This document shows positions 1-62,020 of a DNA stretch of 64,000 nucleotides, in pieces. The notes below the pieces were generated by a model, which did no database searches, had not been told where the DNA came from, and saw only the letters and a list, made by a program, of their open reading frames with translations. How positions within the stretch are numbered: the stretch's first letter is position 1; the number at the start of each line of letters is the position of its first letter. The stretch is taken from contig DASSJF010000038.1 of NCBI GenBank assembly GCA_035691305.1, forward strand, positions 3,312 through 67,311. Direction: 5' to 3'. The stretch comes from a bacterium (lineage in GTDB: Bacteria > Sysuimicrobiota > Sysuimicrobiia > Sysuimicrobiales > Segetimicrobiaceae). The translations under genes were made by a program, and so were the position numbers.

Positions 1-62
1 TGAACGCTGACCAGCAGGCCGAGCGCGAGGCCGGCCAGGAGACCTACGATCGGCAGCCACAC
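1..62 (-). CDS. sbp: Small basic protein Sbp (DUF1290), N-terminal fragment. The gene runs off the window start.
   Basis: A minus-strand GTG start follows a GGGAGGG Shine-Dalgarno. Translation VWLPIVGLLAGLALGLLVSV resembles the B. subtilis Sbp N-terminus (MWLP..GL..G). It lies directly downstream of a DUF881 gene, as in the ylxW-sbp arrangement. Confidence 0.4.
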   Translation of the reverse strand, partial: MWLPIVGLLAGLALGLLVSV

Positions 63-66
63 AGCG

Positions 67-822
67 CTACCCTCCCGTCCCGGCCGGCTTAGCGTAGCGG
101 TACACGAACCCGCCGCTGTACGCGGGCACCAACAGGTCGGTGCCCGGCGTCACGGTCACCGGGAACTCGAACGCCCGCAGTTGGTCCAGAATCCCGCCGC
201 GCGCCTGCGCGGCGACCATCATCGCGTCCGTGTTGCCGACGGCGACGATCCGGTACGGCGGGGCCATGCGCCGCGTGTTGCACAGGATTGTGGTCCCGAC
301 GCACGACAAACCGGTCGTCGCCATGATGCGCTCGTCGTTCACCGCGACGGCTTCGGCCCCCGCCGCCCACAGCATGTTGACCACGGCGCGAACGTCGGAG
401 TAGTGGATCAGCACCAGGTTCGGATCCTCGCCCGGCCGAAGCGGCCTCCGGCTGTCGGTGATCGTCACCGACACACCCGGCCCGCGCACCGCGGTCAGGG
501 CGGCCGCGGACCGCAACTTGGCGAGGTCTTCCGTCAGGGAAGCGGCGACGCGCCGATCGCCCGCGGCGCGCTGCTCGTCGTCCGCGATCTCGCGTCGGAG
601 ATCGGCGATCTCCGCGCGCATCGCCGCCTGGCGCCCTTCCTCCGCACGGTACCGGTAGGCCACCTCGTCGAGACGGCCCGAGCTGACCTGGAGGCCGGTT
701 TCAATCGACTGTTCTGTGCGTGACTGCACGGCAAAGACGAAGCCGACCGCAACCGCAACGGCGGTCAGCGCGACCTGCCACCGGCGGATGCCCGCACCCG
801 CGGCGCGCCCGCGGAACCTCAT
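67..822 (-). CDS. DUF881 family protein (YlxW/YlxX-like; division/cell-wall cluster associated).
   Basis: ORF 67..903. An internal ATG (MRFRG...) gives an ATGA overlap with the upstream gene stop. An N-terminal TM segment, a coiled-coil region and the conserved RGPGVSVTITD...NLVLIHYSDVRAVVNMLWAAGAEAVAVNDERI block are typical of DUF881. Confidence 0.65.
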   Translation of the reverse strand: MRFRGRAAGAGIRRWQVALTAVAVAVGFVFAVQSRTEQSIETGLQVSSGRLDEVAYRYRAEEGRQAAMRAEIADLRREIADDEQRAAGDRRVAASLTEDLAKLRSAAALTAVRGPGVSVTITDSRRPLRPGEDPNLVLIHYSDVRAVVNMLWAAGAEAVAVNDERIMATTGLSCVGTTILCNTRRMAPPYRIVAVGNTDAMMVAAQARGGILDQLRAFEFPVTVTPGTDLLVPAYSGGFVYRYAKPAGTGG

Positions 823-1724
823 GCGGGCGCTCCCATCCGATCGAAGAGGCGGCCCGCTTCGCGGCCCCTCGGCGTCACCCGAAGCACGCCCCACTGGACG
901 CATTGGACCGCGCGCGCCGCGACATCCGGCGCCGCTACGACGAGCCGCCGTCCCACCGGGTCCACGTCGACGATTGTACCCATCGCCATGATGGTACCAC
1001 GGCGGGCGGCCAGCCCGACCAGCAGGTGTCGGAGCGCGTCCCGAGGGATGTCGGCAAGGACGCGGGACGGTGCGACCCGCCGTCCGCGATAGACGGCCGG
1101 GCGCTGCGGAATCACGTCGCGAAGATCGAGCACGAGTTCTGCGGCCCCGGCGAAGTAGGCGGCAAACCGCCCCTCGCGACGCGCGCGCCGTTCCGCGGCC
1201 GAGCGGCGCCTGACGGCGGGCGCGGGGCGCAGCCTGTGCACGACGGTGTCATGAGAAACGCGCGCGAGAATCGGCTCGGCTTCGCAGCCGCGCTGAATGG
1301 CCACGAGGTGCCGCGGGGCCAGCAGCCGGATCTTACGGACTTTCGCGGCGGCGCCCGCGCCTTCGATCCACCCCGTCGTATCGACGACCACGATCTCTGC
1401 CCCCTCGCGCCGGGCGCGCCGGGTCAGCTCGAGCGTTCCCTGGAGAAGGTACCGGTACACCCGCTGGGGGGTCGTGTCGCCGACGAACCAGAGCCCGGCC
1501 GGCGGAATGGCATCCATGCGGCGGACCGGCGTCCGCACCGGCCCCCAGCCGACGGCGGCCGGCGGCCCCAGATCAGACTGGCCCGTATCGGCGTCGACAA
1601 CCGCCGCCGCGACGCCCGCGCGCGCGGCCGCGGCGGCCAGATGCGTCGCGGTGGTCGTCTTGCCGACGTCCACCGCCCCGAGCATCATCACGGTTCCGGG
1701 CAAGGCCACGACGGCGGAAGCCAC
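819..1724 (-). CDS. Clp1/Grc3-family P-loop polynucleotide 5'-kinase-like protein.
   Basis: Walker A LGAVDVGKTTT, the clasp-like motif VVDADTGQSDLGPP (Clp1 DxDxGQ) and Walker B/NTxGW-like VVVDTTGWIEG are present. The gene is 301 aa and overlaps both neighbours. Confidence 0.55.
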   Translation of the reverse strand: MASAVVALPGTVMMLGAVDVGKTTTATHLAAAAARAGVAAAVVDADTGQSDLGPPAAVGWGPVRTPVRRMDAIPPAGLWFVGDTTPQRVYRYLLQGTLELTRRARREGAEIVVVDTTGWIEGAGAAAKVRKIRLLAPRHLVAIQRGCEAEPILARVSHDTVVHRLRPAPAVRRRSAAERRARREGRFAAYFAGAAELVLDLRDVIPQRPAVYRGRRVAPSRVLADIPRDALRHLLVGLAARRGTIMAMGTIVDVDPVGRRLVVAAPDVAARAVQCVQWGVLRVTPRGREAGRLFDRMGAPA

Positions 1725-1753
1725 CGTGTGCCAATCGCCACCGCCCGGGACGT

Positions 1754-2389
1754 TCAGTTCTTCGCGCTCTCCAGCTTCTGCTTGATTCGCTTCAGCCGGA
1801 AGACGTCTTCGCGGGCCCGCTGCTCCAGCACGTCGCGGATGTACCGGATCTCGCCGCGCACACGCGGGATCACGACCTGTTCCAGCGCGTTGACCCGGCG
1901 CGTCGTCTTCTTGATCTCTTCGCCGATCTTCCTCAACGTGATCTCAGTCCCGGCCACCTCGAGGAGCGCGTCCACGACGTCTTCGAACCGGTCGGCGCTC
2001 TCGATCGTGCGCGCCGACACGGACGCGGGATCGACGTTGCGCTCCAGCAGGGACCGCTTGACGCCGTTCGTCGCGATGCTGGGGATACGCGTGCCCCAGA
2101 CGTTCTTGGTGTCGATCCCGACCTCCAGGCGGCGGGGATCCGCCAGCGCGACGGCCTCGAGCGTCTCCCGGCCCTCGACGGCCTTGGTCAGCCCGAGCAG
2201 CGTGTAGGACTGCTCCGCGGACTGCGTGAGCTTCTCGCGCGCGGCCAGCGCCCGCCGCACGATATTGAAGAAGTCCGCCACAAGCGCGTCCCGCTTTTTC
2301 TTCAGGAGGTCGACACCCTGCTGCGCCAGCTTCACCTGGTTCTGGCGCTGCAGCAGGTTCATTCGGGTGGGGCTGATCGTCTCAGCCAT
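1754..2389 (-). CDS. atpD: V/A-type ATP synthase subunit D.
   Basis: 211 aa. MNLLQRQNQVKLAQQGVDLLKKKRDALVADF is the canonical NtpD/AtpD N-terminus. It is the last gene of the V-ATPase operon. Confidence 0.9.
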   Translation of the reverse strand: MAETISPTRMNLLQRQNQVKLAQQGVDLLKKKRDALVADFFNIVRRALAAREKLTQSAEQSYTLLGLTKAVEGRETLEAVALADPRRLEVGIDTKNVWGTRIPSIATNGVKRSLLERNVDPASVSARTIESADRFEDVVDALLEVAGTEITLRKIGEEIKKTTRRVNALEQVVIPRVRGEIRYIRDVLEQRAREDVFRLKRIKQKLESAKN

Positions 2390-2435
2390 AACGGCTTCTC
2401 CTCATGTTATCCGAGCGACGGAGGGGACCCCGCCC

Positions 2436-3851
2436 CTACCGCACCTCGCCGGGGCGGAACATCTTGTCGGCCTGCTCCCCGTAGTAGTACTTGTCTACGT
2501 GGTCGCGGCTGATGCGCGTCAGCGCGGTCTTCGGGAACACCGACAGCAGCTTCCAGCCGAGCGTCAGCGAGTCCTGAATGGAGCGGTCGCTGTTGCCTTG
2601 GTTGATGAACTCTTTCTCGAACGAGTCGGCGAACTTCAGGTACAGCCGGTCGTTCTCGGTGAGCGCCTCCTCACCGATGATCGCGACGAGTCGGCGGAGG
2701 TCGAGGCCCTGCGCGTACGCGGAGTAGAGCTGGTCGGCGACCTGCCGGTGGTCCTCGCGCGTGCGGCCCCGTCCGATGCCGTTGTTCATGAGCCGCGAGA
2801 GGCTCGGCAGCGGGTTGATCGGCGGGTAGATGCCCTGCCGGTGGAGCGGCCGCGCCAGCACGAGCTGGCCCTCCGTGATGTAGCCGGTAAGGTCGGCGAT
2901 CGGGTGCGTGATGTCGTCGTCCGGCATTGTGAGGATCGGGAATTGCGTGATCGTGCCCTTCTTGCCCTTGATGCGGCCGGCGCGCTCGTAGATGCTGGCG
3001 AGGTCGGTGTACATGTAGCCGGGGTAGCCGCGGCGCCCGGGGATCTCTTCGCGCGCCGCGCCGATCTCGCGCAGGGCCTCGCAGTAGTTCGTCATGTCGG
3101 TGAGGATGACGAGCACCTGCATGTCGAGCTCGTACGCGAGGTACTCCGCGACGGTGAGCGCGGTCCGCGGTGTCATCAGGCGCTCGATCGTCGGGTCGTC
3201 GGCCAGATTCATGAACACCACGCTGCGCGCGAGGGCCCCCGTCGTCTCGAACTCCTGGATGAAGAACGCGGCCTCGCGCTGAGTGATCCCCATCGCGCCG
3301 AACACGACCGAGAACTGCTCCGCCTCGCCGAGCACTTTCGACTGGCGCGCGATCTGCGCCGCGATCTCGTTCGCGGGCAGGCCGGCGCCGGAGAAGATCG
3401 GCAGCTTCTGGCCCCGGACCAGCGTGTTCATTACGTCGATCGTCGAGATGCCGGTTTGGATGAATTCCGCCGGCTTCTCCCGCGCCACCGGGTTGATCGG
3501 GGCGCCGAGGATCGGCAGGCGCTTCTCGGGGATGATCGGCGGCAGGCCGTCGATCGGATCGCCGAGACCGTTGAACCGCCGGCCGATCATCTCGCGGCTG
3601 ACGCCGATCCGCGCGACGTCCTCGCGCAGGCTGAGCGACGTTTTCGCGAGGTCCATGCCGCGCGTTTCTTCGAACACCTGGATGACCGCGTTTTTCTCCG
3701 AGACTTCGATGACCTGCCCGCCGCGCACGCTGCCGTCCTGCACGTGGATCTCGACGATCGCGCCGTAGGCGAGGTCCCGGGCGCCCTCGACAAACAGCAG
3801 CGGGCCCGAGATGTAGTTGATGCTCGTGTAGCGCTTGGTGGCGAGATCCAT
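2436..3851 (-). CDS. atpB: V/A-type ATP synthase subunit B.
   Basis: [23 protein letters not shown]...[12 protein letters not shown] and the non-catalytic B subunit fold. The start was set at the internal ATG because the Arg-rich N-extension in the ORF track is an artefact. Confidence 0.9.
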
Positions 3852-3852
3852 G

Positions 3853-5679
3853 TCAGCTCCTCCGCCCGTCGCCCGACGCCGCGCCCGCCGACGCCTGCGC
3901 ATCCCGCGGGCTCGTCCCCGCGGCGGCCTCGCCGCCTGCCTTCGCGAACGTCTGCGCGAGCCCGTCCATGAACTCCTTGAGCGCCGCCGGAAACTTGTCG
4001 TTCGGCACTTCCTTGAACCGCGCGATCCGCTCGTTCTGCGGCAGGTTGAGGATCTCGTCGATCGTCATCCCCCGCTGCAGACCCTCGAGCGAGGCTTCGT
4101 AGAACGCCCGGATCCCTTGGATCATCCCGTAGGCCTTCTCGAGCGAGCACGACGCGTCGACGTCGCTGAACGCGCTCTGCTGCAGGTAGAATTCACGGAT
4201 CATGCGCCCGGCCTCGATCACCATGCGCTCCGCGTCCTGGAGCGCGTCGGGGCCGACCAGTTGGACGACCTCCTGCAGGCCCGCCTCGCGCGCGAGGATC
4301 GCGCTCAGCCACGTGCGCTGGTCGGCGAAATCCTCCGCCACCTGCTTCGCGTACCACGGCGCGAGCAGCGCCTCGTACAGGCTGTAGGACCGGTTCCAGT
4401 TGATCGCCGGGAAGTGGCGGCGGTAGGCAAGCTGCGCGTCGAGCGACCAGAACGTGCCGACGATGCGCAGCGTGCTCTGGGTGACCGGCTCGGACAGGTC
4501 GCCGCCCGGCGGCGAGACGGCGCCGACGACCGTGACGGCCCCGATGCGCTCGTCCTTGCCGAGGACGACGGCGCGTCCCGCCCGCTCGTAGAACGCGGAC
4601 AGGCGGCTCGCGAGGTACGGCGGGTAGCCTTCCTCCGCCGGCATCTCCTCCAGGCGGGACGAAATCTCGCGCAGCGCTTCCGCCCAGCGGCTCGTGCTGT
4701 CGGCCATCAGCGCGACGCGGTAGCCCATGTCGCGGAAGTACTCCGCCATCGTGACCCCGGTGTAGATGCTGGCCTCGCGCGCCGCGACCGGCATGTTCGA
4801 GGTGTTGGCGACGAGGATCGTCCGCTCCATGAGCGGCCGGCCGTTGCGCGGGTCTTCGAGCTCCGGAAACTCCGTCAGCACGTCGGTCATCTCGTTGCCG
4901 CGCTCGCCGCAGCCGACGTAGACGATGATGTCGGCGTTGGACCACTTCGAGAGCGTCTGCTGCACGACGGTCTTGCCGCTGCCGAAGGGGCCGGGGACCG
5001 ACGCGGTCCCGCCCATCGCCACCGGGAACAGCACGTCCAGGATCCGCTGGCCGGTGATGAACAGCTCCGTCGGGTCGAGCTTGCGGGCGGCGGGTCGCGG
5101 CACGCGCACGGGCCACGTCTGCATCATCCGCAGCTCGGCGCCGTTCGTGAGGCGGGCGACGACATCGGTCACCGTGAAGTCGCCGCTCTTGATCTCGGCG
5201 ATCTCACCGGCCGGGGCGTCCGGCGGCACCATGATCCGGTGGGCGTAGGAGTACTCCTGGACCTCCCCGAGCACGTCGCCCGGCCCGACCCGCTCACCGG
5301 CCTTCGCCGACGCCTTGAACGCCCACTTTTTCGCCCGATCCAGCGAGTCGACGACCACGCCGCGCGAGATGAAGTCGCCCTGCGCGTCGCGGATCTTGTC
5401 GAGCGGCCGCTGGATGCCGTCGTAGATGCTGCTCAGCATGCCCGGGCCGAGTTCGAGGGCGAGCGGGGCTTCGGTCGACTCGATCGGCTCCCCGACGTAC
5501 AGGCCCGACGTGTCCTCGTAGACCTGGACGAACGCCGTGTCGCCGTCGAGGCGGATGATCTCGCCGATCAGCTTCTCCTTGCCGACGCGGACGATGTCGT
5601 ACATCCGCGCGCCGGCCAGACCTTCGGCGATGACCGCGGGGCCCGAGATACGCGTGATCTTGCCGGTTGGTGCCGCCAT
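3853..5679 (-). CDS. atpA: V/A-type ATP synthase catalytic subunit A.
   Basis: [20 protein letters not shown]... with Walker [10 protein letters not shown]. The chosen ATG is preceded by GGAGGAG. The upstream ATG at 5700 would give an ATGA overlap with atpF instead. Confidence 0.9.
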
Positions 5680-5696
5680 CCCTTCTCCTCCGTCTC

Positions 5697-6014
5697 TCAC
5701 CGCAGCTTGACGGCGAATCCGATGTGCTCCTTCACCAGCCTGGAAATGTACGCCTCTCCGGACTCAAGGTTCGCGCGCGCCGGGGGCAGCGGCACGATCA
5801 GCGGCAGGTCGCGGCCCCGCAGGAGCCGCGTCCGCGCGTCCTCGGTGCCGTGCAGCAGGTCTTCGTTCACCGCGAGCAGCCCGTAGCCGGCCGCGGTCAG
5901 CTCGCGGATCAGCTCGAGCGCCTGCTCGGGCGTGCCCGCCTCGCGGACCTCGACGCCCGCGAGACGGAACCCCGTCGCCGTCTCGGGATCGGTGATCACC
6001 GCGACCTTATACAT
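5697..6014 (-). CDS. atpF: V/A-type ATP synthase subunit F.
   Basis: 105 aa. [23 protein letters not shown] is typical of subunit F. Confidence 0.8.
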
Positions 6015-7032
6015 TCACGATCTCCTGGCGCGCGACGTCCGTCGCAAGCCCGAGCTGCCGCGCGTGCGCGATCACGCGCACGTTGGCGACTTCCGCCGCC
6101 TTGCGCGTGAGGTAGCCGACGACCACGTCGATGCCCAGCGGATCGCCGAGCAGCATCTGCGCGGCCATGCGCTGGACCCCGCGGTCGACGAACCGTTCCA
6201 TCTCGAGCAGGTCTTCCGTGCCCGTCAGATCCACGCCGAGGATCTTCGTGCCCTGGACGTCGGCGATGCTGGTCTGCGGATCGGCGAGTACGAGAAACCG
6301 CTCCCGCGAGATCGCACCGCCCAGCACGAAGAACTGGTCCCGCTCCTCGCGCGGGAGCTCCCGGATCCGCCGCAGACGCAGCGCGGTCTTGAAGTTCGTG
6401 GCGGTGACTTCCGCGCTGAGAAAGCGGCGGAAGCTCGTCTCGCCGTCCCCTTCGCCGTCGGCAACGCGGTAGCCGTACTGCGCGTACGCACGGTCGAGCG
6501 CGAGTTCGACGTCGAGCAGGCCGCCGCTCCGCTGCGCGGCATCCGCGCCTTCCCGCAGCGCCCGGCCCAGCGGATGCATCCAGGTCTGCAGCGTGTCCGC
6601 GATCGCGCGCAGGTCGGGCTGCTCGAGCAGCTCGCGCAGCCGGACCTCGCTGAGCGACCCGCCCGGGTAAAGGGTGGACAGGATGTCGTCGTCGGGCTTG
6701 TCCGTGTGCTTGCCGCGGACGATCGCGCGGATGTTCTGCAGATCATAGCGCAGCAGGACGACCTCGATCTGGCGCCGCTCCGCCCCGTCGGCAAAGCTCA
6801 GAATGCGGCGGGTCGCGTGGTAGAAGTTCTGCGCCAGCGCCTCGTCGATCGCCCGCACGCCGCCGAACCGGCTGAGGGCCTCCTGCAGCTCGGCGTTGTA
6901 CGGGGTGTCGACGAGCGCCTGAATAATCGCGGGGACATCCGGCGCCGCAAGCAGCTCCTCCAGACGCGACGGCGGAAGGAGCTGGGATTTCATGACCTTG
7001 ACCCGCGCGTTTATGTAGGAAAAATCACCCAC
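6007..7032 (-). CDS. atpC: V/A-type ATP synthase subunit C (eukaryotic d-like).
   Basis: 341 aa. MGDFSYINARVKVMKSQLL... matches the NtpC/AtpC family. Confidence 0.85.
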   Translation of the reverse strand: MGDFSYINARVKVMKSQLLPPSRLEELLAAPDVPAIIQALVDTPYNAELQEALSRFGGVRAIDEALAQNFYHATRRILSFADGAERRQIEVVLLRYDLQNIRAIVRGKHTDKPDDDILSTLYPGGSLSEVRLRELLEQPDLRAIADTLQTWMHPLGRALREGADAAQRSGGLLDVELALDRAYAQYGYRVADGEGDGETSFRRFLSAEVTATNFKTALRLRRIRELPREERDQFFVLGGAISRERFLVLADPQTSIADVQGTKILGVDLTGTEDLLEMERFVDRGVQRMAAQMLLGDPLGIDVVVGYLTRKAAEVANVRVIAHARQLGLATDVARQEIVNV

Positions 7033-7035
7033 GCC

Positions 7036-7623
7036 TCACCGGCTCCACAACGTCTCGGCGACCCGGGATACCATCTCCCGCCGGGCGTGGCTCAGGCGGC
7101 TACCGATCGTGTTCTCCACGACCACGCGGCCGTCCGGCGAGGCGACGCGGACACCGTCGGCGACGTCCCGCGCCTCGCGCACCTCGGCGTCGAGTCCGAG
7201 TTCGCGGCACGCGTCGCGAACCGTCTGGACGTCCGCGGGTGCCGTCTCCACCGTGAGGCGGCCGGAGAGGCCCCGCGCCGCCTCGCGCAGCAGCCCGCGG
7301 AGCACCGCGCCGCGCCGCTGCGAGTTGGCCCCGGCCGCGCCGGTGCGCAACTCGGCTTCCGCCTGCTCGAACACTTTGCGGATCGCCTCGTCTTTCGCGG
7401 CCAGCACGAGCGCGGCCGCGCGCAGGCTCGCGGTGCTGGTCGCCCGCGCCCGGGCCTGGGCCTGCTCCGCCTCCACGCGCCGGCGGGCCTCAGCCTCGAT
7501 CTCCTCGGCCTCCCGCGCCGCCGCCGCGGCGACCTCCTCGGCTTTGGCCTGCGCCTCGTTCAGCGCCTGGTCTTTCTCGACCCGCGCTTCCTGCTCGAGG
7601 AGCTGCATCAGCTGCGTTCCCAC
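7036..7623 (-). CDS. atpE: V/A-type ATP synthase subunit E.
   Basis: 195 aa. An Ala/Glu-rich coiled-coil N-terminus is followed by a globular C-terminus, and the gene sits between K and C in the operon. Confidence 0.7.
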   Translation of the reverse strand: MGTQLMQLLEQEARVEKDQALNEAQAKAEEVAAAAAREAEEIEAEARRRVEAEQAQARARATSTASLRAAALVLAAKDEAIRKVFEQAEAELRTGAAGANSQRRGAVLRGLLREAARGLSGRLTVETAPADVQTVRDACRELGLDAEVREARDVADGVRVASPDGRVVVENTIGSRLSHARREMVSRVAETLWSR

Positions 7624-7641
7624 GCGACCGCTCCGCCCGCC

Positions 7642-7965
7642 CTAGATCTTGCCGTACAGAAAGAACGCGATGACGAATCCGAAGATGACCAGCGTCTCGG
7701 GGATCACGAGCAGGATCAGCATCGTGCCGAACATCTCCGGCCGCTCGGCGATGACGCCCGCCGCCGCTCCGCCGATACGCGACTGCGCGATGCCGGTGCC
7801 GACCGCGCCGAGGCCGATCGCGAGGCCCGCGCCCACGCCCAAGAGGCCCGCCCCCGTGCCGGCCCCCGCCGCCTGCGCGGCCTGCTGCGCGCCCGCTCCC
7901 ATTGCCAAGAGCATCAGCCCGACGGCCGTCAGGCCGAGAACCGTCCACACTTTCCGAGACTTCAC
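7642..7965 (-). CDS. atpK: V/A-type ATP synthase proteolipid subunit K (c-ring).
   Basis: The C-terminal 107 aa of ORF 7642..8382 are Gly/Ala-rich TM helices ending VIPETLVIFGFVIAFFLYGKI. A GTG start follows GGTGGAG and gives a GTGA overlap with the atpI stop. Confidence 0.75.
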   Translation of the reverse strand: MKSRKVWTVLGLTAVGLMLLAMGAGAQQAAQAAGAGTGAGLLGVGAGLAIGLGAVGTGIAQSRIGGAAAGVIAERPEMFGTMLILLVIPETLVIFGFVIAFFLYGKI

Positions 7966-9917
7966 GCTCCACCCCCGCTGCGTTGAAATGGCCGGTACGG
8001 TCGACCGGTGTCCTGGTAGTATTTGAACTTGGAGAAAAACTCGACCCAGTTGAGCCGGGCGGGCTGCAGGATGTGCCCGATGATCGTCAGGCCGAAGAAC
8101 ATGATGTGCGCGACGGCGCCGACGAAAATGCCGATGATCAGCGCGGGCGCCTTCCCGCCGATGGTGTTCGCCACGATGGCGAGGGCGAGCGACGCGACGC
8201 CGACCGCGAAGATTCGGGCGTACGAGATGATCGCGCCGAACGTCGAGATCGATTCCATGATCCACATCGCGCTGCCGAAGCTGGCCGAGAACAGCAGCGA
8301 GAGGAGGAACAGCACCGCGCACCCCAGCATGACGGGGCTGAAGAACGACGACGGCAGCACGTGCACCTGCGTCGCGAGCCACAGGAACACCGTCGTCCCG
8401 CCGAAGAGAAGCGCCGCCGCCTCGAGAAATTCCGTCCGCTCACGGTGCCGGACGGCCTTCACCATCTCCATGAAGAGCCCGAGGTAGACCTGGGCGAGGC
8501 CGAAGCCCACCGACAGATAGAGGTAGGTATTGATCCCCTCGAGCCGGTCGAAAATCGGATGGAAGCCCGGGAACAGCCGCTGCGGAAGATCGCCGAAGAA
8601 CTCGCCGAAGACGATCCCGAAGAGGAACGTGAACGAGGTCATCCACGTGAGCAGCGCGACGACGCGCCGCATCACGACCGGCGTCAGCGTGAACCCGAAG
8701 TCCATGCCGGCCAGAACGACGCGCCACGGCTTCCCCGTCCGCGCCTTGCCCGCGAGCCACAGCGTGATTCCCAGCAGGAACAGGCCGTATCCGACGTCCC
8801 CGATGATGAGACCGACCCAGAGCGGCATCGAAATCGCGAACCAGATCGTCGGATCGAGCGTTCCGTACTTCGGCGGGTCGAAGATCGCGAGGAACATCTC
8901 GAACGGCTTGAGCCATCCGGGGTTGTCGAGCAGCACCGGCACGGCTTCCGCGTGGTGCACGGGGGCCGGCTCGTCGAAGACCATGACGCCGTCCGCGAAT
9001 CGCTTCTTGAGGCCCTCGCGCACCGCGGCGACGCGGGCGCTGGGCACCCAGCCGTATAGCACGAACGCGTACCGCGACTGCGGCGTCTGCGCCATCAGCT
9101 CGTAGCGGTGCACCGCGTCCCGCGCCACCACGGCGATCGCCGTCACTTCGGGCCGGTGCCGCCGGCTGAGCTCGATCAGCTGCCGCCGGCAATCCTCGAT
9201 CTCGCCCGGCAGCACGCGCGCCCGCTCCTGGAGGTGGGTCACGGCCTGCGGCAGCGGCATCCCGCGGACGCCGGCGGGCAGGCGGAGTTCGCTCGCCCCG
9301 GCACGGGTCAGCACGGGTCGCACCGCGTCCGCGTCGCGGCGGGCGTACGCCGCCACGACGGCGAGCCGGTGCGCGTCGAGCGCGCGGTTCACCACCTCGA
9401 CCCTGCCCTGCGTCGCCGCGGCCAGTTCGCCGCGCAGCGCCTCGAGCGCGCCCGGCTTCGCGTCGATGAGGAACCCGGCGGCCTCCAGCGTGCGGCTGCC
9501 CTGCAGCGGAGCCAGCAGGGGCGCGAGGATCTCGATCGCGCGCCCGTAGGCCTGGAGGATCTCCTGCTCCTCTTCCGCGTCCAAGAGGCGCCGCGTAAGA
9601 TCCTTGGCCTGCGTCTCCACGGCGTCGAGCCGCGCCCGCAGCGCCTCGGGCGACTGCGTTTCGTACGGTTCGGTGGACACGGGCGGAATCTCGAGGGCCG
9701 GGAGGAGCGCGAGAATCGCCTCGGCGCGGGTGCGCACCGCGTCGATCGTTTCGCGCGCCGCCTGGTCGCGTGCGTCGAGCGGCCGCGGGCCGATGCCGTC
9801 CTCGATCGGCCGGACGTGGTCGACATGCAGGCTGCCGAGGCCCTGAATCGCGCCGGCAACGTCCGCCTGCAGCCGCCGGGGCCCGAGCACGGTCACCCGG
9901 CTCATCGATACGATCAT
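7962..9917 (-). CDS. atpI: V/A-type ATP synthase subunit I (a-subunit, stator/ion channel).
   Basis: 651 aa with an N-terminal cytosolic coiled-coil domain and a C-terminal multi-TM domain. MIVSMSRVTVLG resembles the Thermus MIAPMEKLVL start. An ATGA overlap with the preceding small subunit gene is present. Confidence 0.85.
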   Translation of the reverse strand: MIVSMSRVTVLGPRRLQADVAGAIQGLGSLHVDHVRPIEDGIGPRPLDARDQAARETIDAVRTRAEAILALLPALEIPPVSTEPYETQSPEALRARLDAVETQAKDLTRRLLDAEEEQEILQAYGRAIEILAPLLAPLQGSRTLEAAGFLIDAKPGALEALRGELAAATQGRVEVVNRALDAHRLAVVAAYARRDADAVRPVLTRAGASELRLPAGVRGMPLPQAVTHLQERARVLPGEIEDCRRQLIELSRRHRPEVTAIAVVARDAVHRYELMAQTPQSRYAFVLYGWVPSARVAAVREGLKKRFADGVMVFDEPAPVHHAEAVPVLLDNPGWLKPFEMFLAIFDPPKYGTLDPTIWFAISMPLWVGLIIGDVGYGLFLLGITLWLAGKARTGKPWRVVLAGMDFGFTLTPVVMRRVVALLTWMTSFTFLFGIVFGEFFGDLPQRLFPGFHPIFDRLEGINTYLYLSVGFGLAQVYLGLFMEMVKAVRHRERTEFLEAAALLFGGTTVFLWLATQVHVLPSSFFSPVMLGCAVLFLLSLLFSASFGSAMWIMESISTFGAIISYARIFAVGVASLALAIVANTIGGKAPALIIGIFVGAVAHIMFFGLTIIGHILQPARLNWVEFFSKFKYYQDTGRPYRPFQRSGGGA

Positions 9918-10263
9918 GCCTGGCTCCCGAGAACCTCGCGGACGACGAGCTCGACCGCCTTGGCGCGCCGCTCCTCCGCCTGCTTGCGGATGGCCGCGGC
10001 TTCCGCCTCGGCGCGCGCCACGATTTCCTTCCCGATGCGCTCGGCCTCGCGTGACGCCTCCGCGGAGGCGCCGGACGCGATGTCGCGGGCGCGGTCGCGG
10101 GCCCGCGCGCGCAGTTCCTCGCCCTGCCGCTGTGCCTGTTCCACGCGCCGGGTAGCCTCGGCGCGAGCGTCGGCGACCTGGCGCTGCAGCTCCTGTTCGC
10201 GCTGCGCGATCTCGCGGAGCAGGGCTTCACCCGATTGACTGCCGGGGGAATCGTGTGCGGTCA
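9914..10263 (-). CDS. V/A-type ATP synthase small coiled-coil subunit (G/H-type), the first gene of the operon.
   Basis: MTAHDSPGSQSGEALLREIAQREQELQRQVADARAEA... is about 116 aa and Ala/Glu/Arg-rich. The ATG follows AGGAG. The upstream part of ORF 9914..10405 was rejected. Confidence 0.6.
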
Positions 10264-10284
10264 TCTCGCATGCTCCTGCGTGGA

Positions 10285-10338
10285 ACAAAAAAATACCGTC
10301 CGTAGACCGTGGTTGAGCCGCCTGCCGGCCCGCGGACG
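10285..10338 (-). promoter_or_regulatory. Terminator-like hairpin plus U7 tract inside the atp 5'UTR (candidate attenuator).
   Basis: On the minus-strand RNA, CGUCCG...CGGACG (perfectly complementary 6-mers flanking a GC-rich interior) is followed by GUAUUUUUUUG. It lies about 25 nt upstream of the atpG Shine-Dalgarno and downstream of the predicted promoter. Confidence 0.35.
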
Positions 10339-10360
10339 TTGGCGCTCCACTGCGGCCAAC

Positions 10361-10389
10361 ATCGTAACAACCCCCCAAAATGGTGTCAA
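10361..10389 (-). promoter_or_regulatory. Sigma70/SigA-like promoter of the V/A-ATPase operon.
   Basis: The minus-strand sequence is TTGACA-N17-TACGAT (CTTGACAccattttggggggttgtTACGAT), about 100 nt upstream of the atpG ATG. Confidence 0.4.
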
Positions 10390-10411
10390 GAAAGAAGCCA
10401 AACAACGGTTC

Positions 10412-10500
10412 GACGACGCCGTCGCATACCGACGGCTAGTCCCGCACCGGGGCGACGCCGTCGCATGCCGACGCCTAGTCCCGCGCCGGGGCGACGCCGG
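10412..10500. repeat. Tandem 39-bp GC-rich imperfect-palindrome repeat (about 2.3 copies) between the nuoN stop and the atp promoter.
   Basis: GACGACGCCGTCGCATACCGACGGCTAGTCCCGCACCGG / GGCGACGCCGTCGCATGCCGACGCCTAGTCCCGCGCCGG / GGCGACGCCGG. Each unit contains the self-complementary GCGACG-G-CGTCGC core. Confidence 0.6.
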
Positions 10501-28990: not shown

Positions 28991-29800
28991 TCACCCCTCG
29001 AGCAGAGAGCGCAGGCGGGGAAGTTCCCGGCGCACCGCGTCGGGGTCGGTCCCGTGATATTCGAAGGTGACGGCCGCCGGCTGGGCCGCGTCGAGCACCG
29101 TTCGCAGCAGCCGGTCGTCCTCGGCGCTCAAGGGCTCGTGTTCATCGAGCAGCACGCCGTCGCGCATCCGCGGCCCGCTGACGTGTACGGCGCGGACCCG
29201 CCCGAGCGGCAGCCGCGCCAGGTACTCATCGATGGGCAATGACAGCCGGGCGGCGGCGACGCGGGCGTGCGCGAGGTCGAGCAGAAACCCCGTGCCGGCC
29301 GCCTCGAGTACGTCCGTGATGAACCCGGGTTCGGATATGTATTCGTAGGCGCCCGAGGGCCAGTAATCCAGGTTCTCGAACAAGAGCGGGACCGGCAGGG
29401 CGGCCGCGAGCGCCCGGGCGTTCCGGGCGATCGCGGCCTGCGCGGCCTCTCGCGGGAGCACAGGGGAGCGCGGCACCATCATCGGCCCGTCCGCGGCGAC
29501 CCGCGTCGACGCGAACCCGAGATGCACGCTGAGCCACGGCGCCGCGGTCCGGTCGAGAATTTCACGGGTCGCGGACAACACGCCCGGCTCGTCAAGCGCG
29601 CGCGGATGCGCGAGCGACCAATTCCATACCGCGTTGTGCACGAACAGCCGCGCCCCCGAACCCGCGGCGGTGGCCGCCCGCGGGCCGCCGGTCTCGAGAA
29701 AGTCCACGCGGACAGCCGCGCCGGCGATCAACCGCCGTGCGAGATCGGTATCGCCGAGACCCAGCAGCGTGGGCACCGTACCTACCGTGTTTGCCGCCAC
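28991..29800 (-). CDS. DUF692/UPF0276 family protein (MbnB/TglH-like TIM-barrel non-heme iron enzyme family).
   Basis: PWLSVHLGF..., LLFENLDYWP, GFLLDLAHA, RVRAVHVSG and LLDEHEPL..VTFEY blocks align with DUF692 consensus blocks (SEHLa, ENi.yy, LLLDvnN, HLAGH, iDtH). It overlaps the upstream PduO gene by 19 nt, so the start is uncertain. Confidence 0.6.
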   Translation of the reverse strand: MAANTVGTVPTLLGLGDTDLARRLIAGAAVRVDFLETGGPRAATAAGSGARLFVHNAVWNWSLAHPRALDEPGVLSATREILDRTAAPWLSVHLGFASTRVAADGPMMVPRSPVLPREAAQAAIARNARALAAALPVPLLFENLDYWPSGAYEYISEPGFITDVLEAAGTGFLLDLAHARVAAARLSLPIDEYLARLPLGRVRAVHVSGPRMRDGVLLDEHEPLSAEDDRLLRTVLDAAQPAAVTFEYHGTDPDAVRRELPRLRSLLEG

Positions 29801-44161: not shown

Positions 44162-45790
44162 TCACGGGCGGACGCCCGGGCGCCCTGCCCCGGCCCCGGC
44201 GGGGACCGCGCGGCCTGCGACCTCCGCGCGCAGGAGCACGTACTCGAGGCTGTCGGCCAGCGCCTGCCAGGACGCTTCTACCACGTTTTCGGAGACGCCG
44301 ACGGTGCCCCAGGTGTTCGTCCCGTCGGTGGACTGGATCAGCACGCGCACGCGTGCGGCGGTCGCCGCGTCCGCGTTGAGCACGCGCACCTTGTAGTCAG
44401 TCAGGCGCACGCGCTGGATCGCCGGGTAGAAGCGCCCGAGCGCCTTCCGCAGCGCGCGGTCGAGCGCGTTCACCGGACCGTCGCCCTCCGCGGCGGTGTG
44501 CTCTTCCTGGCCCTCGACCGCGACCTTGATCGTGGCCTCCGCCGCGCTTGCGCCGCCGCCCCGCTTCTCGACCGTCACCCGCAGGCCGAGCAGGGTGAAC
44601 GAGGGCCGGTGCTGACCGAGGATCCGCCGCATGAGCAGCTCGAACGAGGCCTCCGCGGCCTCGAACTGGTATCCTTCGTGCTCCAGCCGCTTGAGCTCCG
44701 CCAGGATCCGGCGGACCTCCGGCCGGTCGCGCGAGAGGTCGATGCCCATCTCCTGCGCTTTGTACATGACGTTGGCGCGCCCCGAGAGATCGCTCACCAC
44801 GACGCGACGCGCGTTGCCCACCGCCTCCGGCGCGATGTGCTCGTAGGTCGGCGGGTGGGCCATCACGGCGCTGACGTGCACGCCGCCCTTGTGCGCGAAC
44901 GCGTTCTGTCCGACGAACGGCTGGTACTCGTCCGGGGTGAGGTTGGCCAGCTCGGCGACGTAGCGCGACACCTCGCCGAGCCGCACGAGGTGCTCCCCCG
45001 GCAGGCAGCGGTAGCCCATCTTCAGCTGGAGGTTCGGAATAATGGAGACGAGGTTCGCGTTGCCGCAGCGCTCGCCGATCCCGTTGATCGTGCCTTGGAC
45101 GTGCACGCAGCCGGCCTCGACCGCGACCAGCGTGTTCGCCACGCCGAGCTCACCGTCGTTGTGCGTGTGGATGCCGAGCGGCCCCGCGACCGTCCCGCGC
45201 GCCGCCTCGACGCCCTTGCGGATTTCGTGCGGGAGGCAGCCGCCGTTCGTGTCGCAGAGCGCGACGACCGATGCGCCGGCGCGCTCCGCCGCGCGGAGGG
45301 TGGCGAGCGCGTAGTCCGGGTTGGCCTTCCAGCCGTCGAAGAAGTGCTCGGCGTCGTAGACGACCTCGAGGCCGCGCGACCGCAGGTAGCGGACCGAATC
45401 CTCGATCATGGCCAGGTTCTCGTCGAGGGTCGTGTGAAGCGCTTCGCGCACGTGCAGATCCCAGGATTTGCCGAAGAGCGCCGCGGCCGGTGTGGCCGCG
45501 GCGAGGATCAGGTTGAGGTTCTCGTCGTCTTGGGCCGGGATCCCGGGCCGCCGGGTGCTGCCGAACGCGGTGAGACGGGCGTGACGCCACGTCCGGCCGC
45601 GGGCCCGCTCGAAGAACTCCATGTCCTTCGGATTGCTGCCGGGCCAGCCCCCTTCAACATAGTCGAGGCCGAACGCGTCGAGGTACTCCGCGATCCGCAA
45701 CTTGTCGTCGGCGGACAACGTGATGCCCGCCCCCTGGGTGCCGTCCCGGAGGGTCGTGTCGTAGAGCGCGATGCGCCCGCCGTTCGGCAT
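44162..45790 (-). CDS. cimA: (R)-citramalate synthase (LeuA-related, TIGR00977-like).
   Basis: IALYDTTLRDGTQGAGITLSADDKLRIAEYLDAFGLDYVEGGWPGSNPKDMEFF is the citramalate-synthase-type N-terminus. About 540 aa with a LeuA_dimer C-terminus. Confidence 0.7.
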   Translation of the reverse strand: MPNGGRIALYDTTLRDGTQGAGITLSADDKLRIAEYLDAFGLDYVEGGWPGSNPKDMEFFERARGRTWRHARLTAFGSTRRPGIPAQDDENLNLILAAATPAAALFGKSWDLHVREALHTTLDENLAMIEDSVRYLRSRGLEVVYDAEHFFDGWKANPDYALATLRAAERAGASVVALCDTNGGCLPHEIRKGVEAARGTVAGPLGIHTHNDGELGVANTLVAVEAGCVHVQGTINGIGERCGNANLVSIIPNLQLKMGYRCLPGEHLVRLGEVSRYVAELANLTPDEYQPFVGQNAFAHKGGVHVSAVMAHPPTYEHIAPEAVGNARRVVVSDLSGRANVMYKAQEMGIDLSRDRPEVRRILAELKRLEHEGYQFEAAEASFELLMRRILGQHRPSFTLLGLRVTVEKRGGGASAAEATIKVAVEGQEEHTAAEGDGPVNALDRALRKALGRFYPAIQRVRLTDYKVRVLNADAATAARVRVLIQSTDGTNTWGTVGVSENVVEASWQALADSLEYVLLRAEVAGRAVPAGAGAGRPGVRP

Positions 45791-45794
45791 TCGT

Positions 45795-47330
45795 CTAGCC
45801 GCCGTAGGTGTTGCTCATCCAGTGCTCGCGCTCGTAGATGAGCTTGTTGACCGCGGTGAGGTAGGCCTTCGCGCTCGCCTCCAGCACGTCGGTGCTGGTT
45901 CCGCGGCCGACGAACAGGCCGTCGCCGTCCCGCACCTTCACCGTGGCTTCGCCGAGCGCGTCGGTGCCGACGGTCACGGCCTTGATCGCGTAGTCGGCCA
46001 GGGTCGGGGAGAGGCCGGTGATCTTGTTGACGGCGTTGTAGATCGCGTCGACCGGGCCGTCGCCGCTCGCCTCCTCCGTGAACAGCTCGCGGCCGCGCGC
46101 GAGGGTGACGGACGCCATCGGCGGGAGCGTGCTGCTCGTCGAGACGTGGAAGGCACGGAGGGCGTAGGTCTGCGGCCCCTGCCCCTCGCTCTCGACGAGC
46201 GAGAGGATGTCCTCGACCGAGACCTGCTTCTTCTTGTCGCAGAGCACCTTGAACTCGACGAACGCCCGCTCGACTTCGGCGTCGCTCAGCTTGAGGCCGT
46301 TTTCCTCGAGCAGGTTCTTGAAGGCGTGGCGGCCGGAGTGCTTCCCGAGCACGAGCTTGTTGCTCGGGATACCGATCGTCTGCGGCGTCATGATCTCGTA
46401 GGTCTCGCGGTTCATGAGGACGCCGTGCTGGTGAATCCCGGCTTCGTGCGCGAACGCGTTGTCGCCGACGATCGCCTTGTTCGGCTGAACGGGCACGCCG
46501 GCGATCGCGCTGATCAGCCGGCTGGTGCGGTAGATCTTCGTCGTGTCGATCCCGGTCTCGCAGCCGTAGTAGCCGCGGCGCGTGTGCAGCGCCATGACGA
46601 TCTCTTCCAGCGCGGCGTTGCCGGCCCGCTCGCCGATGCCGTTGATCGTGCCTTCGATCTGACGCACGCCGACGCGCAGCGCGGCGAGCGAGTTGGCGAC
46701 GGCCAGCCCGAGGTCGTCATGACAGTGCACACTCCAGACGACCTTGTCGCCGCCCCGGGTGTGCTCGATGCAGAACTTGAGCAGCGCCGCGTATTCCTCC
46801 GGCGTCGCGTAACCGGTCGTGTCCGGGACATTGATCGTCGTCGCACCCGCCGCGATCGCGCCGTCGAACACGCGCACCAGGAACGCGGGATCCGACCGGC
46901 TCGCGTCCTCCGCCGAGAACTCGACGTCTTCCACCGACCGCCGCGCGAGCCGCACGGCCGCGACCGAGGCCTCGTAGACCTGGTCCGGCGTCATGCGCAG
47001 CTTATGCTCCATGTGGATCGGGGACGTGGCGATGAAGGTGTGGATGCGCGGGCGCTCCGCCTCGCGCACGCCCTCGATCGCCGCCTCGACGTCGCCGCGA
47101 TTCGCGCGGGCGAGGCCGGCGATCACGGGCCCGCGCACCTCGCGGGCGATCAGCTGCACGCCTTCGAGATCGCCGGGCGAACTCGCCGGGAAGCCGGCTT
47201 CGATGATGTCGACCCGCAGCGCGGCGAGCGCGCGGGCAACCTCGAGCTTCTCCTGCGTGTTCATGGTGAAGCCCGGCGACTGCTCGCCGTCCCGCAGCGT
47301 GGTATCGAAGATCCGGATCATCTCGCCCAT
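45795..47330 (-). CDS. leuA: 2-isopropylmalate synthase.
   Basis: [17 protein letters not shown]...[16 protein letters not shown]...[13 protein letters not shown] motifs. The start is at MGEM/MIRIF (47330 or 47321). The N-extension was rejected. Confidence 0.85.
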
Positions 47331-47435
47331 CCCTTCTCCTCCCCCTCCGGCCTCGCGAATGCGGGGCCGTGATCCGCGCGCGGCCCGCCGCGTCCCTCGC
47401 GGGGACAAGCCGGCGGAATGCGCCGGCGCGGCCGC

Positions 47436-61944: not shown

Positions 61945-62020
61945 TGGCGCGCCCGGAGGGATTTGAACCCCCGACCTACGGCTCCGGAGGCCGGCGCTCT
62001 ATCCGCTGAGCTACGGGCGC
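61945..62020 (-). tRNA. tRNA-Arg (anticodon CCG).
   Basis: The 76-nt cloverleaf is GCGCCCG-UA-GCUC-AGCGGAUA-GAGC-G-CCGGC-CUCCGGA-GCCGU-AGGUC-GGGGG-UUCAAAU-CCCUC-CGGGCGC-G-CCA. The 7-bp acceptor stem, the T-loop TTCAAAT and the encoded CCA are present. Confidence 0.85.

Follow-up and report, generated by a model that had tools for sequence, protein, structure and literature searches.

Bacterial members of the Clp1 family of polynucleotide kinases were catalogued by Saito et al. 2019 (PMC6777427), who listed 149 such proteins and found Clp1, with a patchy spread over the phyla, in 14 of the 1,543 complete bacterial genomes surveyed (0.9%). The same work characterized the Thermus scotoductus protein Ts-Clp1 (E8PQM6) as a thermostable, ATP-dependent 5'-OH kinase which, like Ph-Clp1 (PH0197) from the archaeon Pyrococcus horikoshii, prefers single-stranded RNA over single-stranded DNA. 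Both proteins lack an N-terminal domain and are active on single-stranded RNA and DNA, while eukaryotic Clp1 needs its N-terminal domain for ATP binding. The other bacterial members listed span 272 to 368 residues, and the operon context of bacterial Clp1 was not analysed there; the literature also includes a 2023 follow-up study. The present work deals with a gene of this family, here denoted clp1, in a stretch of 64,000 nucleotides (nt) from a bacterium of the Segetimicrobiaceae (Sysuimicrobiota; contig DASSJF010000038.1, forward-strand positions 3,312 to 67,311), referred to as the window. An initial annotation, made from the letters and their open reading frames (ORFs), had proposed a Clp1/Grc3-type protein, of a kind rare in bacteria, encoded at positions 819 to 1,724, and an ORF with exactly these limits was indeed found on the minus strand:

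819..1724, minus strand: clp1, Clp1-family polynucleotide kinase ORF, 301 residues, start GTG at 1724, stop TGA at 819-821
822..1145, minus strand: beta-rich C-terminal domain of the Clp1 type, residues 194-301

The gene encodes a prokaryotic-type Clp1, made of a P-loop kinase domain and a Clp1-type C-terminal domain and lacking the N-terminal domain of the eukaryotic proteins. The product, which is strongly basic (isoelectric point of 11.5), is matched by the Pfam profile CLP1_P (PF16575) with an E-value of 2.4e-36 and 125.7 bits, against a cut-off of 26.6 bits; the alignment runs from residue 16 to 193 and covers the entire profile (positions 1-188 of 188), far beyond what chance would give. 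Among solved structures, the best sequence matches are human Clp1 (E 6.7e-7), NOL9 and C. elegans Clp1, and the structure comparison likewise recovered the Clp1 fold, well apart from other P-loop NTPases, which score far lower. The C-terminal region (194-301) is not picked up by any sequence model, and is assigned to the Clp1 type because 271 to 289 positions align. The P-loop begins at residue 16 and the product could be lengthened upstream by at most ~11 residues, which leaves no space for the eukaryotic N-terminal domain (Clp1_eN), so that the protein is of the prokaryotic, archaeal-like type. Membership in the Clp1 family, as first proposed, can thus be taken as practically certain.

Two other assignments were considered and rejected. 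The first was another P-loop family (ParA/MinD, SRP54 or CobW/MobB-like), the outcome that would have overturned the original proposal. The matches to CbiA/ParA, SRP54, MipZ and all further families span just ~35 residues at the P-loop, and no full-length CbiA/ParA/MinD match was obtained, the similarity being confined to residues ~16-51 (NF041546 reached 28 bits, with a cut-off of 180). The second was a role in a defence system: no PADLOC model matched, the sole match reaching 14 bits (E 0.005) without a significant stretch.

The kinase motifs were defined according to PMC6777427, that is, Walker A as GxxxxGK[S/T], Walker B as [D/E]hhQ, Clasp as [T/S/L]xGW and Lid as RxxxxR. All four are present in the clp1 product:

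1656..1679, minus strand: Walker A or P-loop, GAVDVGKT, residues 16-23, read from the translation
1578..1589, minus strand: Walker B, DTGQ, D46-Q49, from the translation and the alignment to human Clp1 (chain 8hmy_E)
1368..1379, minus strand: Clasp, TTGW, T116-W119, an RNA-binding element, read from the translation
1188..1205, minus strand: Lid, RSAAER, R174-R179, from the translation and aligned with the ERSKDFRR segment of human Clp1

Conservation was read from an alignment (A1) of 33 homologues, with identities down to 49%. Invariant residues include G16, D19, V20, G21, K22 and T23 in Walker A, D46, G48 and Q49 in Walker B, T116, G118 and W119 in the Clasp, and both arginines, R174 and R179, of the Lid. 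In the alignment to 8hmy_E, D46 and Q49 pair with the Asp and Gln of the human Walker B segment VELDVGQ. The peptides on which the initial annotation relied are all in place (GAVDVGKT at 16-23, VVDADTGQSDLGPP at 42-55 and TTGW at 116-119), although the names given to two of them had been swapped: the DxDxGQ element, lying within residues 42-55 and described as the clasp, is Walker B, and it is the TxGW motif that constitutes the Clasp according to the published definitions.

As far as the published descriptions allow the comparison, Ts-Clp1 is shorter (240 residues), has neither an N- nor a C-terminal domain and carries a degenerate Lid (PMC6777427), whereas the protein studied here has 301 residues, a C-terminal domain and a canonical RxxxxR Lid, and hence resembles the longer bacterial members and the archaeal type. 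The likeness to archaeal Ph-Clp1, a proven 5'-OH kinase on RNA and DNA (PMC6777427), lies in the presence of the kinase and C-terminal domains and the absence of the eukaryotic N-terminal one. Matches by tblastn to several archaeal homologues span residues ~9-293, although the archaeal loci found, Ph-Clp1 aside, share just ~26-38% identity with the window protein, and in a rough neighbour-joining tree its clade falls within a mostly bacterial group, off the main archaeal cluster. The eukaryotic proteins (human and C. elegans Clp1, Grc3/Nol9) are more distant, with 15-21% identity, an N-terminal domain that is missing here and a different genomic and cellular context, no TSEN, Pcf11 or Las1 partner being evident near clp1 (no search aimed at Las1 was made). 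Finally, the NTPases of the SIMIBI class (SRP54/FtsY, MinD/ParA, BioD) score far lower and have no Clasp, Lid or Clp1 C-terminal domain, and the window protein is not a member of that class.

A word-indexed search returned 126 homologues, many of them already annotated as 'polynucleotide 5'-hydroxyl-kinase (GRC3/NOL9)' or 'Clp1/GlmU family protein' (JGI, NCBI). When 1.84 billion cluster representatives were searched exhaustively with phmmer, 2048 clusters reached E <=1e-3 and 1442 reached E <=1e-10; just two or three of these belong to the clade of the window. A pattern scan in which each of 185,579 species was represented by one genome gave at least 190 confirmed relatives. The locus comparisons that follow rest on the best 80 of these relatives, namely seven loci of the same clade (L001-L007, 49-72% identity to the clp1 product) and 73 more distant ones. 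These 80 include unclassified bacteria, metagenome-assembled genomes (MAGs) of Bacillota and Armatimonadota, Nitrospirota, Rokubacteria/Methylomirabilia, anammox Planctomycetota, Atribacterota, Actinomycetota, Acidobacteriota and others, as well as many archaea. The neighbour-joining tree mentioned above, a crude one built from BLOSUM distances and without support values, joins the window and L001-L007 in a single clade. The notion that such proteins are rare in bacteria holds for cultured genomes, as in the survey cited above, but among MAGs homologues occur in many bacterial phyla. Nor could the implied novelty be maintained, given that bacterial Clp1 proteins had already been catalogued, one of them being a proven 5'-OH kinase (PMC6777427), and that the closest homologues already carry this annotation.

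The reading that we favour, and consider probable, is that clp1 encodes a Clp1-family 5'-OH kinase of the end-healing type, carried in a housekeeping operon. Family membership, motifs, fold and gene order are matters of observation, and kinase activity is strongly suggested by the invariant catalytic and substrate-binding residues and by the characterized prokaryotic relatives. Most likely, the enzyme would use ATP-Mg2+ to phosphorylate the 5'-hydroxyl ends of single-stranded RNA and, less well, of DNA. Briefly, K22 and T23 of Walker A would hold the phosphates, D46 of Walker B would coordinate the metal and activate the 5'-OH, Q49 and the Clasp W119 would grip the first nucleotides of the substrate, and R174 and R179 of the Lid would stabilize the transition state. 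In the cell, the predicted role is that of end-healing, in which 5'-OH ends arising from metal-independent ribonucleases, toxins or chemical cleavage would be converted into 5'-phosphate ends fit for ligation or degradation. The host belongs to an uncultured lineage of the Bacillati (Terrabacteria), with clp1 at the tail of a V/A-type ATP synthase operon; the gene is probably co-transcribed with that operon and its translation is probably coupled to that of the DUF881 gene downstream, which would make its expression constitutive, alongside housekeeping genes. Several points weigh against this proposal. The putative preference for RNA over DNA is carried over from other enzymes; the precedent of yeast Clp1 shows that a family member may bind ATP and yet have no kinase activity; no repair partner (RtcB, an RNA ligase, Hen1 or any other) was found in the window or in the related loci; and the start codon is uncertain, with a conserved Trp lying upstream of the first canonical start.

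The alternative that survives best, although we deem it unlikely, is that the protein acts mainly as a DNA-end kinase in repair or recombination, supplying ligases, or 5'-3' exonucleases such as RecJ, with 5'-phosphate ends. Prokaryotic Clp1 enzymes do phosphorylate single-stranded DNA (PMC6777427), and the neighbours of the homologues in other clades offer some encouragement. A recJ gene lies ~69 nt upstream, on the same strand, in seven Brocadia/Planctomycetota loci (L030, L044, L047, L049, L051, L066 and L068), an arrangement in which a 5' kinase and a 5'-3' exonuclease may work together. Similarly, recG, rsmD (Cons_hypoth95) and an aminotransferase gene precede the homologue in eleven loci of the Rokubacteria/Methylomirabilia clade (L023, L024, L027-L029, L033-L035, L037, L040 and L050, four of which are labelled just 'uncultured bacterium'), often with a CoxG-like gene next. 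However, Ts-Clp1 and Ph-Clp1 both favour RNA (PMC6777427), the homologues next to recJ or recG belong to other clades and share at most 41% identity with the clp1 product, and nothing related to DNA flanks clp1 in its own clade.

Other arrangements are equally restricted in range: proC and yggT lie upstream in three Moduliflexus-like loci, and a gene for Der lies downstream of the homologue in two loci of Actinomycetota and one of Planctomycetota. In an archaeal neighbour cluster of eight loci, one representative gives a weak, below-cut-off DUF460 match upstream and a second gives no Pfam match. Further annotated neighbours are a nitroreductase, an EamA transporter and CoxG. The idea of a universal partner gene was discarded, since clustering the ORFs within 6 kb of the 80 homologue loci revealed no neighbour common beyond single clades. 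Even so, several of these neighbours encode proteins that work on nucleic acids or on ribosomes, in keeping with a polynucleotide kinase. A repair partner (RtcB, an RNA ligase or Hen1) recurs in none of these arrangements.

A second alternative, which appears very unlikely, is that the protein works as a non-catalytic, ATP-binding scaffold tethering partner proteins, in the way of yeast Clp1. The yeast protein provides the model for such a role, and its inactivity has been ascribed to mutations accumulated in its kinase domain (PMC6777427), whereas throughout the clade of the window D46, Q49, W119 and the arginines of the Lid never vary. Moreover, the homologues of Pcf11, TSEN and Las1 that might be so tethered are not evident nearby, with the limit regarding Las1 stated above, nor is any annotated neighbour a nuclease.

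The immediate surroundings of clp1 must be described at this point, because two further alternatives depend on them:

1..62, minus strand: beginning of the sbp/DUF1290 gene, truncated at the window edge; its reverse complement encodes MWLPIVGLLAGLALGLLVSV
67..822, minus strand: DUF881 gene, 251 residues from ATG 822 (PF05949, E 8.8e-39), its start overlapping the clp1 stop as ATGA
1725..1757, minus strand: candidate translated N-terminal extension LNVPGGGDWHT, in frame with clp1 and extending upstream to a CTG that shares bases with the atpD TGA (CTGA)
1754..2389, minus strand: V/A-type ATPase subunit D gene (atpD), which closes the ATPase operon and immediately precedes clp1 (PF01813, E 1.1e-50; NCBIfam V-type ATP synthase subunit D)
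2436..9917, minus strand: V/A-type ATPase genes I, (K), E, C, F, A and B, from Pfam matches
10361..10389, minus strand: promoter-like site TTGACA-17-TACGAT with an extended TG (consensus scan, a pattern match only)
10414-10397, minus strand: terminator-like hairpin after nuoN, just before the promoter-like site (consensus scan, a pattern match only)

The neighbours named in the initial annotation (atpD, DUF881 and the start of sbp/DUF1290 at the window edge) were thereby verified. In the last case, 19 of the 20 residues of MWLPIVGLLAGLALGLLVSV are identical to the N-terminus of the PF06947 (DUF1290/sbp) gene product of L085, with a difference at the start residue alone. The claim that clp1 overlaps both of its neighbours stands for its 3' end, where the ATGA junction with DUF881 was found, and falls for its 5' end, where a gap of 29 nt (1725-1753) lies between the atpD stop and the GTG. 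The promoter-like site is the only one on the minus strand in 1..10500 and sits just upstream of the ATPase operon; together with the hairpin, it likely marks the beginning of the ATPase-clp1 transcription unit. Neither promoter-like nor terminator-like sites were found by the same pattern scan on the minus strand between 1 and 2400. Such results and the tight spacing agree with a transcript that starts at the ATPase promoter and runs on through clp1, and the gene is probably co-transcribed with the operon. Base composition was also considered as a possible trace of recent horizontal transfer: the GC content at third codon positions is 0.83 in clp1, 0.92-0.94 in the ATPase genes and 0.86 in DUF881, a small difference that fits an effect of expression level.

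The nature of the start codon deserves further consideration. Nine loci of the closest subclade were compared, namely the window, L001, L085 and L087-L092 (68-85% identity), and no ATG, GTG or TTG was found in any of them between the atpD stop and the GTG chosen by the gene caller. The clp1 frame is open back to the CTG overlapping the atpD stop (CTGA), without an in-frame stop in any of the nine spacers. The spacers measure 32, 32, 68, 74, 38, 35, 68, 35 and 32 nt; all these lengths equal 2 modulo 3, implying at least four frame-preserving indels, for which the chance is ~(1/3)^4. The Trp is kept in seven of the nine loci, and three loci retain a PPERG peptide whose codons differ by synonymous changes. 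Deeper-branching members of the clade start two to six codons ahead of this conserved Trp (e.g., MAPTRGEWRETV or MTEWRRTV), and the distance from the Trp to the PG motif in the window equals that in P0069, whose upstream start is canonical. These features suggest that the spacer is translated, with initiation at or near the atpD stop, and that the CTGA junction may serve for termination-reinitiation at a non-canonical start. The short form beginning at GTG 1724 is also viable, because the ATG of P0040 and P0107 immediately follows the position of the Trp. Another explanation considered for the frame-preserving spacer, programmed -1 frameshifting out of atpD and into clp1, was judged unlikely, as G-AAG-AAC-TGA is not a canonical slippery heptamer and a large C-terminal fusion on the rotor subunit D seems unlikely to be functional.

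One could go further and suppose that the kinase is an appendage of the ATP synthase operon devoid of a start codon of its own, translated only by ribosomes that end on atpD and re-initiate at CTGA, so that its dose would be tied to that of the ATP synthase and would link the phosphorylation and turnover of RNA 5' ends to the energy supply, or else that it acts on the ATPase or division proteins; we regard this as highly improbable. Bacterial Clp1 enzymes being already known, the missing canonical start and the CTGA junction are the small unexplained feature of the present locus.

The position of clp1 is remarkably constant within its clade. The gene follows atpD directly in all seven genome loci and DUF881 comes next in six of them, an order that called genes reproduce in 12 metagenome contigs carrying eight different clade proteins, and clp1 thus lies next to atpD in all the clade loci checked. 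In L081 and L083 the called ATPase genes keep an identical order, subunit K included. The 4-nt overlap with DUF881 is maintained as well, with products of likewise 251 residues in L085, L086, L088, L089, L090 and L091, and of 247 or 249 in L081, L082 and L092. Where contig and fetched stretch extend far enough for the full array to be read, all these genes belong to a one-strand array composed of nuoN, a small ORF, V-ATPase I-K-E-C-F-A-B-D, clp1, DUF881, DUF1290 (sbp), gap, pgk, tpi, secG and nadC, a syntenic block of ~20 kb in this lineage.

Some variation was observed at the site. In L004, a MAG labelled ANGP1 (356-2299), atpD and clp1 are directly followed by gap, the DUF881-sbp pair being absent. 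The ATPase genes themselves are of two types: in L002, L003 and L005 AtpD shares 79-85% identity with that of the window, while L006 (59-7886) and L007 (10-7568) carry divergent genes (AtpD 35-38%, AtpA 56-57%), with clp1-DUF881 still in place, which suggests either replacement of the operon in situ or strongly uneven divergence. Some relatives have an intein in the V-ATPase B gene, as in L092 (1-694), whose 981-residue product shows Intein_splicing and LAGLIDADG_3 matches, and L001 presents a 1.5-kb gap in the AtpB match (~5000-6552); AtpB in the window has 488 residues and no intein. A 481-residue protein from the genome of P0069 (L081), P0070, joins AtpD residues 1 to ~178 to the Clp1 homologue. 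Its use as a Rosetta-stone link was rejected: the fusion lacks the last ~30 residues of AtpD and is joined at a shared 'RGE' microhomology, and it is most likely a deletion variant or an artefact of assembly or gene modelling.

Outside the clade the linkage disappears. In the 73 more distant loci, atpD is never adjacent on the same strand and DUF881 is never nearby; the only ATPase operon in the vicinity, that of L026 (Nitrospirae), is convergent and ~4 kb off, and its presence was judged to be due to chance. The linkage to the V-ATPase and DUF881 genes is therefore real in the clade of the window and absent from those 73 loci, and inherited gene order, that is, lineage-wide synteny, is the best explanation for it. 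Since the adjacency lies within a ~20-kb array of housekeeping genes in one clade only, it gives no evidence of a functional tie to ATP synthesis or to cell division. The weakest alternative, in which the protein would be an accessory of its neighbours (an NTPase for assembly or regulation of the V/A-ATP synthase, or a MinD/ParA-like ATPase working with the DUF881/sbp membrane proteins), could draw on the constant place after atpD, kept even beside a divergent ATPase operon, on the conserved ATGA coupling, on the frame-preserving spacer and on the weak CbiA/ParA matches at the P-loop, and is nevertheless the least probable of all, given that the whole array is syntenic, that the distant loci lack the arrangement, that L004 retains clp1 without DUF881/sbp at the site, that the ParA/SRP matches cover only ~35 residues and that the polynucleotide-binding residues are conserved.

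The remainder of the window is devoted to ordinary core metabolism (nuo, sucC, his, ilv/leu), and Rfam and tRNA scans revealed no RNA elements near clp1. Three other features were recorded:

61945-62020, minus strand: tRNA-Arg(CCG), the sole Rfam or ARAGORN match in the 64-kb window
44162-45790 and 45795-47408, minus strand: tandem LeuA-type genes (HMGL-like + LeuA_dimer) in the ilv/leu cluster, presumably an isopropylmalate synthase and a citramalate or homocitrate-type paralogue
28991-29800, minus strand: gene for an enzyme of the MbnB/TglH/ChrH (DUF692) family, which modifies ribosomally synthesized and post-translationally modified peptides (E 2.5e-20), adjoining an isocitrate dehydrogenase-like gene

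The gene context of clp1 provides no specific functional clue, and therefore the finding opens no new question by itself. What it adds to the scattered bacterial Clp1 kinases is a well-conserved clade of archaeal-like architecture from uncultured soil bacteria, and it indicates that Clp1 genes are commoner in uncultured phyla than surveys of cultured genomes had suggested. A clade that carries clp1 in a presumably constitutive operon of housekeeping genes might be a useful model in which to look for the role that bacterial Clp1 plays in the cell.

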